Source: Frankiales bacterium | Lineage (GTDB): Bacteria > Actinomycetota > Actinomycetes > Mycobacteriales > SCTD01 | Direction: 5' to 3' | NCBI GenBank assembly: GCA_025465135.1 | Contig: JAODNA010000049.1 | Coordinates: 44,507-108,506 of the forward strand | DNA length: 64,000 nucleotides | In this document: positions 54,801 through 59,292 of the stretch, one piece after another | Position numbering within the stretch: the first letter of the stretch is position 1 | Layout of the letters: each line of letters starts with the position of its first letter | The notes under the pieces: generated by a model | The model's input: only the letters and a program-made list of their open reading frames with translations | Told to the model about the DNA's origin: nothing | The model's database searches: none | Position numbers and translations under genes: made by a program

Positions 54801-55148
54801 CTACGGCGTGGCGACCTCCCACGGGCGGGTGTCGGTCGCCGCGCTGTCGATGCGCCCGTCCGCACCGCGGGTGATGTTGACGCGAGCCCAGATGAGGTCG
54901 GCTCGGCGCCCTGCGAAGCCGGTGTGGTCCTTGAGGATCCGGCCCTCCCGGGCGGCGACGGCTTCGGCCTCCGGGATCGTCAGGCCGAGGTAGTGGTCGG
55001 TGGGCAGCAGGATCACGGCGACGGCGCCTCGCATGCCCTCCGCGAACTCCTCGAACGTCGTGGGCCGGTCACTCGGCTCAGGCGGGTGCTCGCGCATCAG
55101 GGTCTCGGCGAGGTCGAGCCGCTCCTTCAGCCACTCCTCCGGCGTCAT
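54801..55148 (-). CDS. Hypothetical protein (115 aa)
   Basis: Lies in ORF 54801..55664. ATG 55148 forms an ATGA overlap with the stop of the upstream lipoprotein gene. The translation is [21 protein letters not shown]...[21 protein letters not shown]. No confident family. Confidence 0.55.
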
Positions 55149-55717
55149 GGCCGGTACTGCTCCTCGATCCCGACGACGAGGCCGTTCTCGACGTCGAAGT
55201 GGAACAAGGGCTTGCGCTCCGTGGGCGTGTGCAGGTAGGTCAGCCACTGCGTCACGGTGACCGCGCGGGGCGTGTCCGCATGGGCGTTGTCGACGCGCCA
55301 GATGTGCACGGCGCCGGCGAGGACGTAGCGCCTGGTCCTGGGGTTGTTGTTCACGAGGAAGTAGTCGTTGGCGTAGTCCTGGCCGGCCGCAGCGGCCGCC
55401 TTCTCGCCCTCGTCGCCGGAGAGCATGTCGACGCGGTCGACGTCGACCGAGACCCGACCCTGGGACCGGATCGCCCTGACCACGAGGCCGAACTCGTCGG
55501 TCTCGGCGAGCCTCACGGTCGGGGCGGACTTGATGCCCGCGACGGCTGCGCGCGTCGCAGGAGCGGAGGGCAGATCCGCGGCGGGCGACGACGACGACGA
55601 CTCCGGAACCGCGAGCGGGGCGCGGGCGGGCGACGCCGTACAGGCAGCGAGCAACGGTGCGCACAGCAGCGCCACGGCCAGTTGCCTGCAGCGGCGCACC
55701 ACCTCCGAAGCATGCAC
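55145..55717 (-). CDS. Lipoprotein (hypothetical)
   Basis: Lies in ORF 55145..56011. Candidate GTG starts are 55717, 55702 and 55699. The N-terminus ...RRCRQLAVALLCAPLLAAC carries the lipobox LLAAC. Confidence 0.65.
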   Translation of the reverse strand: MHASEVVRRCRQLAVALLCAPLLAACTASPARAPLAVPESSSSSPAADLPSAPATRAAVAGIKSAPTVRLAETDEFGLVVRAIRSQGRVSVDVDRVDMLSGDEGEKAAAAAGQDYANDYFLVNNNPRTRRYVLAGAVHIWRVDNAHADTPRAVTVTQWLTYLHTPTERKPLFHFDVENGLVVGIEEQYRP

Positions 55718-55762
55718 CGAAAACCGCTTGCCCGCGCCCTTCTCAGTGACTCTGATGCAGCC

Positions 55763-56542
55763 GTGACACCCACGCCGTACGACGAGCTGAACGCCCTGCT
55801 CACGGACCTCGTCCGGCGCGCGTCGAGCGTTCTCGGCGACAACTTCCACGGTGCCTACGTGCAAGGGTCGTTCGCTCTCGACGCCGGCGACCTGCAGAGC
55901 GACTGCGACTTCCTGGTGACGACGCGGGCGCCGTTGACCGCCGAGCAGGAGGCCGGCATCCGTGCGCTGCATGACGAGATCCCGACCCGGCCCGGGCACT
56001 GGACGCACCACCTCGAAGGCTCGTACGCCGTCGCCGACGAGCTGCGATCGGTCTCATCCCTCGGCCGCGCATGGCTGTTCGTCGACCACGGGTGGCGCGA
56101 GATGTCGTGGTCGACCCACTGCAACAGCGAGGTCGCGCGCTGGATCACGCGCGAGCGCGGCATCACCCTTGCCGGACCGGGCCCGCAGTCGGTGATCGAC
56201 GTCGTACCGCCGTCGGCCCTGCGTTCCGCCATGAAGGAGCAGATCCCCAGGCTGCTCGACGACCTCGCAACGTGGGTCAGCCTCGACCTCGCCTGGGGCC
56301 AGCGCTACGCCGTCACCACGTACGCCCGGATGCTCTACACGCTCGAGACCGCCGAGGTCGCGTCGAAGGCAGGCGCCCTGATCTGGGCCCACGCCGCGTT
56401 GGACCCCGCCTGGCAACCCCTGCTGGAGCAGACCTTCCTCGACCGGCCGCTCGGCTTCGACCCCGACGCCACGGCCCGCCCCGGCAGCGTCGCGCAGACC
56501 CGAGCCTTCGCCCGGTACGCCGAGTCGCTCGCGGCGGGCTAG
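55763..56542 (+). CDS. Nucleotidyltransferase-domain protein, aminoglycoside adenylyltransferase (ANT/AadA, DUF4111)-like
   Basis: Lies in ORF 55199..56542, starting at GTG 55763. The NTase motif is GAYVQGSFALDAGDLQSDCDFLV (G-S...D-x-D). Its length of about 259 aa and helical C-terminal half fit AadA-type enzymes. The substrate is unverified. Confidence 0.8.
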   Translation: MTPTPYDELNALLTDLVRRASSVLGDNFHGAYVQGSFALDAGDLQSDCDFLVTTRAPLTAEQEAGIRALHDEIPTRPGHWTHHLEGSYAVADELRSVSSLGRAWLFVDHGWREMSWSTHCNSEVARWITRERGITLAGPGPQSVIDVVPPSALRSAMKEQIPRLLDDLATWVSLDLAWGQRYAVTTYARMLYTLETAEVASKAGALIWAHAALDPAWQPLLEQTFLDRPLGFDPDATARPGSVAQTRAFARYAESLAAG

Positions 56543-56770
56543 CGAGCCGGCATGCCAGCATGGCCGCGCAGGTGGCCATCGCGCCGGCTGCACGACACCG
56601 AGCACCGCGCAGGGGCGTTCCTCGTCGGACAGGGCCTACTGCCCACGCCGTGGTGCTGGTGCCGTGTCCACGGCTGAGGACCTACACCGCCGCTGACGGC
56701 AACGTCACGGGCAGGAGCGCGGGTCAGTCCGCGGCTCCGAAAGAAGGCTGTGCACAGGGGACATTCACGC

Positions 56771-56803
56771 TTGACACGGCCTTTTCTTCGAACTAGTGTT
56801 CGA
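56771..56803 (+). promoter_or_regulatory. Promoter (TTGACA-17-TAGTGT) overlapped by a perfect LexA SOS box TCGAAC-TAGT-GTTCGA
   Basis: TTGACA lies at 56771-56776 and TAGTGT at 56794-56799. The box TCGAACTAGTGTTCGA lies at 56788-56803. The ATG of the DUF222 gene is at 56806, 6 nt after the -10, which implies a leaderless mRNA. Confidence 0.7.
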
Positions 56804-56805
56804 AC

Positions 56806-58347
56806 ATGTTCATCACGACCAGCGCCGCGCCGCAGGTCGATGACGGCTGGGAAGCCTTCGCGCGGCCGGAGTTCAGGGACGACCTCGAGCTGCTGGCGAC
56901 ATCCGTGCGCGCCGACGGTGAGCGCTGGGCGGAGCAGGCGATCGTCACGGCCCGACTTGCCGCCCAGGTGCCCTGCGAGGCTGGGATCACCCGGACCGCG
57001 ACCGCCTGGAAGTCCTTCGTCCGGGAGATCGCGGTCGCGCGTCGCTGCAGCGACCAGGCCGCAGCCAAGGAGATCTACCTGTCGGTCGCGCTGACGACGT
57101 CGCATCCGAAGACGCTTGCCTTCCTGCAAACCGGCCGGCTCCCCCTCTACAACGCCCGCGTCCTGCTCGAGGAGTCGGCCGGCTGCGAGTCGGCCATCGG
57201 CGCTGCAGTGGATGCCGAGCTCGCAGAACGGGCCTGCCGGCTGACACCGTCGCGGATCCGCGACGCCGTCCGCCAGATCGAGCTCCGCATGGACGCTGAT
57301 GCGGCTGCCGCCCGGTCAGCCAAGGCGACAGCGACCCGCAACGTGCGGCTGAGCGCTGACCGCGACGACCAGGCAACGATCGTGCTGTCCGGACCGGCCC
57401 TTCCCCTCGTCCAGTTCTACGAGACCGTCACGGCCGCGGCGCGCGCCGCCCGCGCCGCCGGGGATCCGCGGGGCATCGACGCGCTCCGCTTCGACCTCGC
57501 CCTCGATGTGCCTGCCGAGGTCCCCGTCGCTGCCGCGATGCGGTCGGTCGTCGAGACCGGGGACACCGACGCATCGGAGGCCGTCGCCTCAGAGGCAGGT
57601 GGCCCCGACGAGCGATCGACCGGGTCGGTGGTCCCGAGCTGGCTCGGCGACCGCCGCCTGCTGCGACCGATCCAAGCGCTGCTCAACCTGTCCGTGACAA
57701 CAGCGCTGGGGCTCGACAACGAGCCGGGCTGGCTGCACGGCTACGGCTGGGTCAGCGCCCCCCAGTGCCGGCAGTGGCTGACGGAGGCCGAGCTGCGGCA
57801 GGTCTGCGTGGGGCGCGACGGCTTCGTGCTCGACACCGCGGACCGCGTGGTCCGTCCCGAGCCGACGCCGGTGGGCGTGCGCGACGCGGTCCTCGCGATG
57901 GTCTCCGATCCCGGAGAGATCACCGACAAGACGTTCCGATCCGAGCCGCGGCACGACCCGAGCCCGGCGCTGGCGGGCTTCGTCGATGTCCGCGACCTCG
58001 ACTGCGACGGGCCTACGGGCACGCGCGTGCCGGCCTCGCGGTGCGAGCACGACCACGACATCCGCTACCCGGACGGGCCGACGGCCGCGTGGAACCTCAA
58101 GCCGCGCGCGACCCGCACGCACGTGCTGAAGTACAACGGCTGGACGCCACTACGCACGGCCACCGCGACGCTCTGGTTCAGTCCGGCCGGCCAGATCGTC
58201 GAGGTCCCGCATCACACCGGGCCACCACCCGACCTCGATCCGGACGCCGAGCTGCCCGATCCACAAGAGCTTCATGACGTGGAAGCCGAGCTGCTGCGAC
58301 CGCCGGGTCCCGACGACCAGCCACCGTGGGACGCGCCACCCTTCTGA
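56806..58347 (+). CDS. DUF222 / HNH-endonuclease-domain protein (13E12-repeat-family type)
   Basis: The N-terminal DUF222-like region is ...ARLAAQVPCEAG...FLQTGRLPLYNARVLLEE... The C-terminal HNH-like region is CDGPTGTRVPASRCEHDHDIRYPDGPTAAWNLKPRATRTHVLKYNGW; the second half of the motif looks degenerate. Confidence 0.85.
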   Translation: MFITTSAAPQVDDGWEAFARPEFRDDLELLATSVRADGERWAEQAIVTARLAAQVPCEAGITRTATAWKSFVREIAVARRCSDQAAAKEIYLSVALTTSHPKTLAFLQTGRLPLYNARVLLEESAGCESAIGAAVDAELAERACRLTPSRIRDAVRQIELRMDADAAAARSAKATATRNVRLSADRDDQATIVLSGPALPLVQFYETVTAAARAARAAGDPRGIDALRFDLALDVPAEVPVAAAMRSVVETGDTDASEAVASEAGGPDERSTGSVVPSWLGDRRLLRPIQALLNLSVTTALGLDNEPGWLHGYGWVSAPQCRQWLTEAELRQVCVGRDGFVLDTADRVVRPEPTPVGVRDAVLAMVSDPGEITDKTFRSEPRHDPSPALAGFVDVRDLDCDGPTGTRVPASRCEHDHDIRYPDGPTAAWNLKPRATRTHVLKYNGWTPLRTATATLWFSPAGQIVEVPHHTGPPPDLDPDAELPDPQELHDVEAELLRPPGPDDQPPWDAPPF

Positions 58348-59292
58348 TCAGCCGAGGCCGCTGACGAGCTCCGCGACGACGTCGGCGGCCGGGCTGACGT
58401 CGGTGACGCTGCCGACGCCCTCACCGGCGTACAGGGCCATGGCTGCGACCTCGCCCTCGACGTGCCGGCTCGGGGTGGCGACCCCGAACCGCGGCACCGC
58501 CACCCGCACCGGCCCGGAGACCACGTGACCGACGAAGTCCCCGTCGAACGCCTCGGCTGCCGCGACCGCTGACCGCAGCACCCGGTGCGGCGCATCGGGC
58601 CAGCCCTCGCTGAAGGTCGTCGTGAGCACGGTGTCCTCACCCGACGTCGCAGCAACCAGGGCGGAGATGTACGCCGGGTGCGCCCGCGACTCGGCGGTCG
58701 CGACGAACCGCGTGCCGACCCGCACCCCCGCGGCCCCCGCACCGATCACCGCTGCCACGTCGGGCGCGCTGGAGATGCCTCCCGCCGCCAGCACCGGCAG
58801 CGACGTACGACCCAAAACCGCCGCGAGCAGCTCGTCGCGGCCGGTGCTTCCCCGCACGTGCCCCCCGGCCTCGACGCCCTGCACGATGACGAAGTCGCAG
58901 CCGGCGTCCGCGGCGGCCAGGGCTGCGTCGACGGTCCCGACCTGCCAGGCCACGCGGGCCGCACCCGACCGGCGGGCCCGGCCGACGACGGCGGGGTCCG
59001 GCTCGGTCCAGAACACCTCGACGACGCGCAACCGCGACGCGGCATCCTCGAAGGTCGCGAGGTCACCGTCCATCCACTGTCCGAAGAAGCCCATGCCGAC
59101 GGCCCCACCGCCGCTCAGCTGCAGCGCGCGCGTGATGCGGTCGGTCGACGGCTCCACGTCGAACTCGCAGAGCATCCCGAGCGCCCCGGCGGCGGCGACC
59201 GCTCCGGCGAGCTCGGGCCCCGCGACCCCGCCCATCGCGGCCTGCTGGAGCGGGTGCGTGCAGTCGACGAGCTGCGTGAACGGCGTCTCCAT
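58348..59292 (-). CDS. Nitronate monooxygenase / 2-nitropropane dioxygenase-family FMN oxidoreductase
   Basis: Motifs are PLQQAAMGGVAGPELAGAVAAAGALGML, VIVQGVEAGGHVRG, PVLAAGGISS and GAAGVRVGTRFVATAES. ATG 59292 follows GGGGGG; ATG 59313 is an alternative start. Confidence 0.85.
   Translation of the reverse strand: METPFTQLVDCTHPLQQAAMGGVAGPELAGAVAAAGALGMLCEFDVEPSTDRITRALQLSGGGAVGMGFFGQWMDGDLATFEDAASRLRVVEVFWTEPDPAVVGRARRSGAARVAWQVGTVDAALAAADAGCDFVIVQGVEAGGHVRGSTGRDELLAAVLGRTSLPVLAAGGISSAPDVAAVIGAGAAGVRVGTRFVATAESRAHPAYISALVAATSGEDTVLTTTFSEGWPDAPHRVLRSAVAAAEAFDGDFVGHVVSGPVRVAVPRFGVATPSRHVEGEVAAMALYAGEGVGSVTDVSPAADVVAELVSGLG

Follow-up and report, generated by a model that had tools for sequence, protein, structure and literature searches.

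The gene at positions 56806 to 58347 of the 64-kb stretch of Frankiales bacterium DNA analysed here (contig JAODNA010000049.1; the whole stretch is called the window) encodes a DUF222/HNH protein of the 13E12 type, and a perfect SOS box, the predicted operator of the repressor LexA, overlaps its predicted leaderless promoter. LexA-controlled 13E12/DUF222 genes are already known, and the window gene is a further member of this group. Three features go beyond what is known, namely the near-universal pairing of operator and leaderless promoter across the whole family, in which the two elements shift their register, a zinc-less variant of the HNH motif, and a helically phased element further upstream that resembles a DnaA box. 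In Mycobacterium tuberculosis, the 13E12/DUF222 genes are among the most strongly LexA-controlled genes and are found at recurrent inversion breakpoints.

We estimate a probability of about 75% that the gene is a stand-alone LexA-repressed DUF222/HNH (REP13E12-type) gene that works in the following way. In the undamaged cell, a LexA dimer would sit on the 16-bp operator, which reaches from -18 to -3 in a promoter of the sigma-A type (TTGACA-17-TAGTGT), and since the LexA-bound operator covers the promoter, RNA polymerase would be excluded. DNA damage would lead via RecA* to the self-cleavage of LexA and the release of the promoter. The first transcribed base would then be the A of the start codon (56806), and ribosomes would translate the leaderless transcript directly. 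The product would consist of a DNA-binding region, formed by the helical DUF222 part, and an HNH core of the beta-beta-alpha-metal type that has lost its zinc site, and it would nick or cut DNA, which in this multicopy and probably selfish family would promote recombination between the copies. The presence of 13E12 genes at inversion breakpoints in M. tuberculosis (PMC13157036) fits such a role. The second element, which lies on the same helical face and precedes the start by about 54 nt, would couple expression to the replication status if it is bound by DnaA.

The SOS box and its promoter

The promoter consists of the following elements:

56771-56776, + strand: -35 hexamer TTGACA, read directly; among the promoters of the 9 closest relatives, 8 have TTGAC(A/T/G) equally far from the box
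56788-56803, strandless: predicted LexA operator (SOS box) TCGAAC-TAGT-GTTCGA, matching at 12 of 12 positions and conserved among relatives
56794-56799, + strand: -10 hexamer TAGTGT (TANNNT type), inside the operator and separated from the -35 by a 17-nt spacer
56806-56808, + strand: ATG start codon and predicted leaderless transcription start, 6 nt beyond the -10 and without a Shine-Dalgarno sequence

The SOS box TCGAACTAGTGTTCGA (56788-56803) agrees with the actinobacterial consensus TCGAAC-N4-GTTCGA, as set for M. tuberculosis (PMC3381160), at all 12 specified positions. The exact pattern TCGAACNNNNGTTCGA occurs a single time in the window, and none of 100 dinucleotide-preserving shuffles contained it. 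If up to two mismatches are allowed, four boxes are found in the window with 2.6 expected, which is the chance level, and therefore only the exact site is meaningful. The promoter region reads ...cTTGACAcggccttttctTCGAACTAGTGTTCGAacATGttc..., so that the box overlaps the -10 and 2 nt separate its end from the ATG, and the bases between the -10 and the ATG are TCGAAC. The initial annotation of this stretch had described a perfect SOS box embedded in a leaderless promoter, and on reading the sequence every coordinate that it gave for the -35, the 17-nt spacer, the -10, the box and the ATG proved to be exact.

A generic sigma-70 scan called no promoter at 56771-56799, because TAGTGT fits TATAAT at just three of six positions. 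In Actinobacteria the -10 consensus known from mycobacterial maps of transcription start sites (TSSs) is TANNNT, to which TAGTGT conforms. There are neither other exact SOS boxes nor further copies of the DUF222 gene in the 64-kb window. A lexA gene is likewise absent from it, which weighs against LexA control.

An argument for the operator comes from homologous genes. Promoters were collected from a scan of species-representative genomes (43 loci), a metagenome scan (51 loci), five Modestobacter genes and the window itself. This yielded 52 promoters of homologous genes, with protein identities of 24-72% to the window protein, and the relatives are uncultured Frankiales and Mycobacteriales as well as the cultured genera Modestobacter and Quadrisphaera. 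At the gene start the box is exact in 36 of these promoters, deviates at one position in 13 and at two in 3, which means that 49 of the 52 have at most one mismatch; just two loci with upstream sequence (L065 and L088) are without a box. Moreover, the window and 43 related loci add up to 415 kb, and every one of the 27 exact boxes in this DNA is located at the start of a DUF222/HNH-family gene. The sequence around and between the promoter elements is not conserved. Since the box is kept while its surroundings are not, selection acts on the box itself. By this comparative evidence the SOS box is functional, and the binding of LexA to it, as proposed in the initial annotation, is predicted.

A TANNNT hexamer followed after 5-7 nt by the ATG or GTG of a long open reading frame (ORF) is present in 46 of the 52 promoters, which leaves no space for a Shine-Dalgarno sequence. 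The leaderless layout first described for the window is thus shared by most of the family. However, the -10 occupies four registers relative to the box, which are about 10 nt apart:

Layout A: -10 inside the box, from box position 7-8; 15 promoters, including the window and its closest relatives; ATG 2-3 nt past the box
Layout B: -10 right after the box, from position 17-19; 24 promoters; -35 adjoining the 5' end of the box
Layout C: -10 ending at the first T of the box; 5 promoters, all of Modestobacter; start codon at box positions 9-11
Intermediate layout: -10 from box position 12; 2 promoters

In layout A proper, where the -10 begins at position 7, the N4 spacer is TAGT in nine promoters and TAAT in three, and elsewhere it is made up of 17 different tetramers. 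Such a dependence of the spacer on the register of the -10 is to be expected if the spacer doubles as the -10, and it supports the overlap of operator and -10 described in the initial annotation. In all 12 promoters of this layout the ATG follows TAGTGT or TAATGT by exactly 6 nt, a purine-rich Shine-Dalgarno sequence is missing, and the N-termini of the homologs align at the start methionine of the window protein. A leaderless start at 56806 is therefore a prediction that is well supported by comparison. In every layout, LexA bound to the operator would occlude RNA polymerase.

SOS control by an operator placed on a leaderless promoter thus appears to be an ancient and near-universal property of this family that reaches well beyond the mycobacteria. 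Because the cultured Modestobacter species (loci L192-L196; Modestobacter versicolor, Modestobacter marinus and Modestobacter italicus) share the same architecture, they offer a tractable system.

There are also two noteworthy promoters at the margins of this collection. Quadrisphaera sp. INWT6, a cultured member of the Kineosporiales, has the same design (L043:4226-4256, TTGCGA-cg-TCGAACGCGTGTTCGA-TATGAT-cacggc-ATG) in front of a gene for a distant DUF222/HNH protein of 827 aa with 28% identity, and no DnaA-like site is found nearby. At L066:1414-1444, two overlapping degenerate SOS-like boxes, TCGAACGCTTGTACTA and ACGTACGCTTGTTCTA, stand in tandem ahead of a family gene.

The element upstream of the operator

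A second conserved element precedes the operator:

56748..56757, + strand: DnaA-box-like element, 9-mer CTGTGCACA(G) and 10-mer CTGTGCACAG, recognized by the M. tuberculosis DnaA matrix; family consensus YYGTCCACAG

Scored with the published matrix for M. tuberculosis DnaA (PMC7738170 Table S10), the 9-mer CTGTGCACA (56748-56756) reaches 13.86 out of 15.18, and 9 of the 127,984 9-mers in the window score as high (top 0.007%). It has seven of the nine consensus positions of TTGTCCACA, the high-affinity DnaA box of M. tuberculosis and Streptomyces coelicolor (PMC4285127). The 10-mer CTGTGCACAG ends 31 nt before the SOS box, at about -58 to -49 from the predicted TSS, and since it is a perfect palindrome of 10 bp, the window element reads as a DnaA box on both strands. 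Its core differs only at the N of TTWTNCACA, which is the classical DnaA box and in which this is the position that varies.

Similar elements are found in the homologous promoters. A forward site with a matrix score of at least 13 lies no more than 83 nt from the box in 27 of the 52 promoters; the corresponding number for the reverse strand is 4, and random segments gave a mean of 0.8 and a maximum of 4. The heptamer TCCACAG occurs 39 times on both strands of the 415 kb, and 14 of these occurrences are in forward orientation within 70 nt ahead of a box. Exact TCCACA is present in 22 of 47 promoters, always in forward orientation, and its distances to the box fall into groups of 10, 10, 10, 11 and 12 nt, of 19, 19, 20, 20, 20, 21 and 21 nt, of 31, 31, 32, 32 and 32 nt, and of 42, 42, 43, 43 and 44 nt. 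This periodicity of 10.7-11 nt has a Rayleigh R of 0.87 (p ~6e-8), and none of 5000 random sets reached it. The sequence between the TCCACA element and the box is not conserved. Core variants are found at in-phase distances as well, namely TGCACA in the window and in L016 and TTCACA in L010 and L027. Over 29 instances, the first three positions are Y in 25, Y in 27 and G in 22. The five genes of cultured Modestobacter agree in a distance of exactly 42 nt between element and box. In one of them, L192 (L192:1442-1451), the full TTGTCCACA is present, and L050 has TTATCCACA. The main class comprises 17 promoters of the layouts A, B and C in which the 9-mer is located at about -58 to -50 from the predicted TSS; in smaller classes the element lies one helical turn closer or one to three turns farther away. 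Unrelated viral contigs with TCCACA and an SOS box, which encode no DUF222 homolog, do not follow such a spacing rule.

We predict, with odds that are even at best, that the upstream element binds DnaA. On this basis we tentatively propose a two-input switch for the 13E12-type promoters of Frankiales, Geodermatophilaceae and related uncultured Actinomycetota, which may combine a LexA operator with a single DnaA box, the latter being placed 1-4 helical turns upstream of the operator and mostly at about -54 from the leaderless TSS. If this is true, these nuclease genes would be expressed only when the cleavage of LexA coincides with a given state of the replication initiator. It would also be the first case in Actinobacteria of a conserved promoter architecture that joins LexA with DnaA, and it would tie the replication status to a gene family of inversion breakpoints. 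A real phased DnaA-like box would thus give a direct handle on when and why cells deploy these putative nucleases.

Several observations weigh against this proposal. The syntenic ortholog L002 has no good DnaA-like site according to the matrix, the list of in vitro DnaA sites of M. tuberculosis, obtained by IDAP-seq, contains no 13E12 promoter (PMC7738170), and the transcripts of Rv2100 and Rv1702c are unchanged in dnaA mutants. We found no literature that links 13E12/DUF222 promoters to DnaA, and to our knowledge a DnaA-box-like element at the 13E12 genes of M. tuberculosis has not been reported.

It is conceivable, though somewhat less likely, that the upstream element is real but is read by a protein other than DnaA. 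Candidates are a regulator of the MtrA type (box GTCACAgcg) and some unknown activator. The DUF222 protein itself is a third one; it could act on its own promoter, or the element could be its cleavage or recognition site. The MtrA box in oriC of M. tuberculosis is indeed similar (PMC4285127) and GTCACA variants occur in L001 and L004. A weak ParB-like helix-turn-helix in the DUF222 region would suit the protein acting on its own promoter, and single DnaA boxes are usually weak. However, the core is TCCACA in the 29 instances and the variants TGCACA and TTCACA change nothing but the N of the DnaA consensus. The first three positions correspond to those of TTGTCCACA, which L192 carries in full, and the matrix finds its 27 matches where 0.8 are expected. 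In addition, most of the promoters lack the tandem direct repeats that MtrA requires.

The prediction of a LexA site next to a DnaA box has a precedent in Escherichia coli, where the promoter regions of uvrB, recN and dinJ contain an SOS box together with one or more DnaA boxes and both proteins modulate transcription (PMC6015884). Phylum, box sequences and genes differ. The DnaA of E. coli acts as a repressor that competes in part with LexA, whereas the predicted sites in the window are apart (31 nt) and helically phased. In M. tuberculosis H37Rv, a secondary DnaA-enriched window was obtained in vitro at 79400-79425 (PMC7738170 Table S8), and LexA peak 17 from chromatin immunoprecipitation with sequencing (ChIP-seq) lies at 79429-79535, upstream of Rv0071 (PMC3381160 Table 1). 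The two coincide, and the promoter of Rv0071 is a possible natural LexA and DnaA promoter.

Two other roles of TCCACAG were rejected. It is not the -35 of a second promoter, since no TANNNT follows at a suitable distance, and it differs from the RecA-NDp/PafBC motif, TGTCRGTG-N8-TANNNT. Virus-like actinobacterial contigs from IMG/VR (L162, L141, L149 and L154; 62-70% GC) contain clusters of DnaA-box-like repeats (TGTGGACAA, TGGGGACAA and TCCTCCACAG) that directly adjoin one or several SOS boxes, and DUF222 proteins are not encoded on them.

The DUF222/HNH protein

The coding sequence comprises the following parts:

56806..58347, + strand: ORF of 513 aa, DUF222/HNH (13E12-type) according to profile comparisons; ratio of non-synonymous to synonymous substitution rates (dN/dS) 0.18-0.29; modelled with AlphaFold2 (AF2)
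57019..57507, + strand: DUF222 core, residues 72-234 (first domain of the match to the hidden Markov model (HMM) of canonical proteins, 59.8 bits; PF02720 matched in homologs)
57991..58143, + strand: HNH-like beta-beta-alpha core, residues 396-446 (RD..CDGPTG...RC.HDH...GPTAAWNL..R..RTH.LKY.GW)
58132..58134, + strand: codon TAC (Tyr443), His in 103 of 104 sequences including the syntenic ortholog L002

The protein sequence is the same as that of 'hypothetical protein JWP11_891 [Frankiales bacterium]'. Its assignment as DUF222/HNH is not obvious from standard searches, and these negative results count against it: no Pfam family is matched even at E<=1, the gathering score of PF02720 is not reached, and NCBIfam, a PDB sequence search, PADLOC and PHROGs gave no match for the 513-aa protein. 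However, profiles place it in the family, as the initial annotation had stated. The cut-off of PF02720 (DUF222) is passed by 20 of 29 relatives with 44-72% identity. In hhalign, a profile of 104 family members matches the DUF222/HNH proteins of Quadrisphaera and Modestobacter with a probability of 100% (E 1.2e-43) over residues 24-466 (431 columns). The match of the 513-aa protein to an HMM built from 109 canonical 'HNH endonuclease signature motif' proteins (98 bits, E 3.5e-26) is split into residues 72-234 and residues 379-507. Since the 13E12 family of M. tuberculosis is defined by the DUF222 domain (PMC13157036) and the profiles establish homology, the window protein is a divergent member of the 13E12 type.

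The HNH motif had been called partly degenerate on account of the peptide ...CEHDHD...NLKPRATRTHVLK, which is present in the translation. This description holds for the zinc site and for one histidine but not for the catalytic residues. The canonical motif is C-x4-C...C-x2-(H/D)H...N-L-x2-L-C-x2-HH-x3-H, whereas that of the subfamily to which the window protein belongs is C-x4-G...C-x2-DH...N-L-x2-R-A-x2-TH-x3-H. The catalytic residues D416-H417, N430 and H439 align with the canonical HH...N...HH; none of 104 sequences with identities down to 44% deviates at D416, H417 or N430, and a single one lacks H439. The AF2 model (predicted local distance difference test score, pLDDT, 85; predicted template modelling score, pTM, 0.81) shows strands at 414-417 and 431-434 and a helix at 436-443, which correspond to a beta-beta-alpha fold. 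Furthermore, comparison with the syntenic ortholog and close relatives gave a dN/dS of 0.18-0.29, and the flanking genes for dGTPase and nitronate monooxygenase (NMO) do not differ in this respect; the protein is therefore kept by selection. The HNH catalytic core is thus probably functional in the family, and nuclease activity is predicted.

Other findings weigh against a nuclease. The zinc-ligand cysteines at 405 (Gly/Gln) and 435 (Ala/Ser/Gly) are lost in all 104 sequences; of the remaining ones, Cys400 is found in 94 and Cys413 in 58 of them. In the window protein alone, the second histidine of the helix (H-x3-H) is replaced by Tyr443. Foldseek gave no significant match of the AF2 model to solved and viral structures. 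Because of the two lost zinc cysteines and the H443Y exchange, the nuclease may be weakened or inactive in the window copy. The exchange by itself may attenuate this copy; it can be explained by one C-to-T change and could be a real attenuating mutation or a consensus error of the metagenome-assembled genome (MAG).

It is somewhat unlikely, however, that the protein is no longer a nuclease at all and that its HNH motif has been reduced to a DNA- or protein-binding fold, for instance as a binder of DNA ends or recombination intermediates. The cysteine losses, the H443Y exchange and the lack of any Pfam HNH match would be explained by such a loss of function. On the other hand, the conservation of D416, H417, N430 (100%) and H439 (99%) is the pattern of an active site, and Pfam HNH misses even canonical DUF222/HNH proteins. 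Many active HNH enzymes lack a structural zinc, such as the HNH domain of Cas9 and the colicin DNases, which counts against a loss of activity. Stress-induced HNH-type DNases with a reduced motif exist in Actinobacteria as well, since MSMEG_1275 of Mycobacterium smegmatis is active with an H-N-N motif, and degenerate HNH motifs can therefore stay active (PMC9416677). Unlike the window protein, MSMEG_1275 does not belong to DUF222, to judge from PMC9416677, and a factor of the ArsR type regulates it instead of an SOS box. The retention of the catalytic residues despite the loss of the zinc site makes the subfamily a zinc-less HNH variant that goes beyond the known features of 13E12 proteins.

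If the protein is a nuclease, it might also be an SOS-triggered toxin for abortive or programmed cell death instead of a recombination-promoting or selfish element, which we regard as quite unlikely. Over-expressed MSMEG_1275 fragments the chromosome and kills M. smegmatis, although four of five over-expressed HNH proteins of this species were not toxic (PMC9416677). Tight occlusion of a leaderless promoter by LexA would suit a toxic product. However, a partner gene for immunity or an antitoxin is missing, the gene forms a monocistronic unit among housekeeping neighbours, the next gene downstream being convergent, PADLOC has no match, and several paralogs per genome are under purifying selection.

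Residues ~75-120 (57028-57165) resemble the helix-turn-helix of ParB/Spo0J/Noc with a profile E of 0.039, which is below significance. The top Foldseek matches, structures of ParB and Noc (probability 0.87-0.89, E 0.35), are likewise not significant but agree with this hint. The stretch aligns with the helix-turn-helix, but there is no CTPase/ParB N-terminal domain. It suggests, as a lead only, a DNA-binding module that reads sequence.

Known LexA targets and the genomic locus

In M. tuberculosis, six LexA ChIP-seq peaks are located at 13E12 genes, and the TSSs of Rv2100 (13E12) and Rv1378c lie inside their SOS boxes and are probably identical to the start codons (PMC3381160), which confirms the statement of the initial annotation that members of this family are LexA-regulated. 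The REP13E12/DUF222 genes under LexA are Rv2100, Rv0336, Rv0515, Rv1702c, Rv1588c and Rv0095c. They share with the window gene the DUF222 N-terminal region and a C-terminal HNH-type motif, the operator TCGAAC-N4-GTTCGA and its position at the start of transcription and translation, and they form a multicopy, dispersed family (PMC3381160, PMC13157036). There are differences, too: the window protein is too divergent for PF02720, its subfamily has replaced two zinc cysteines, the box is perfect here but has 1-3 mismatches there, and no RecA-NDp-like element is evident at the window gene. The layout C of Modestobacter is the arrangement mapped in M. tuberculosis for Rv2100 and Rv1378c. The leaderless LexA genes Rv1378c, Rv1000c and Rv3395c likewise have their TSS at or within the SOS box and at or beside the start codon, but they encode other products.

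These genes also bear on whether LexA might regulate a transcript that is leadered, is translated from another start or stems from another promoter, which appears very unlikely. The empty sigma-70 scan would be in line with it, as would two possible in-frame starts in some relatives, at box position 9 and 11-13 nt past the box. However, the constant distance between -10 and ATG, the missing Shine-Dalgarno sequence and the alignment of the homologous N-termini at the start methionine speak for a leaderless transcript, and the mapped TSSs of Rv2100, Rv1378c and Rv1000c coincide with their start codons. That the palindrome arose by chance or belongs to another repressor is effectively refuted by the comparative data, since no shuffled sequence contained the box and since 49 of 52 promoters from different orders of Actinomycetota keep it, unlike its surroundings.

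The DUF222 gene is monocistronic and lies among housekeeping genes. Genes for a dGTPase, a small lipoprotein and an AadA-like nucleotidyltransferase are located upstream, and the convergent NMO gene, followed by RsgA, is located downstream. In L002, which stems from another MAG, the flanks have 77-82% nucleotide identity to the window, and the gene is 72% identical. Because of this synteny, the window copy is an old resident and not a recent insertion, and recent mobility was rejected. A mobile element with terminal repeats was also rejected, since there are neither inverted repeats upstream nor partner motifs past the stop codon, and the lack of such hallmarks counts against the proposed model; TCCACAG is placed in a hairpin at L004 and L020 only. 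An origin from a defence system or a phage was rejected as well, given the empty PADLOC and PHROGs searches, the housekeeping neighbours and the lack of DUF222 homologs on the viral contigs with TCCACA and an SOS box. The window contains one copy of the gene, several related MAGs contain 2-4, and Modestobacter versicolor has several paralogs.

Compared to L002, the window has about 2 kb of extra DNA upstream of the gene (54804-56790 as opposed to L002:4535-4953), which comprises the lipoprotein and the AadA-like nucleotidyltransferase. L002 in turn has about 0.6 kb of extra DNA just downstream (L002:6476-7037) with two small ORFs. Since window and L002 differ by extra DNA on each side, both flanks of the DUF222 gene are prone to insertions and deletions. 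At 58345-58350 (TGATCA), the stop codon TGA of the DUF222 gene directly adjoins that of the NMO gene (TCA on the + strand), with neither intergenic space nor a terminator between the two genes.

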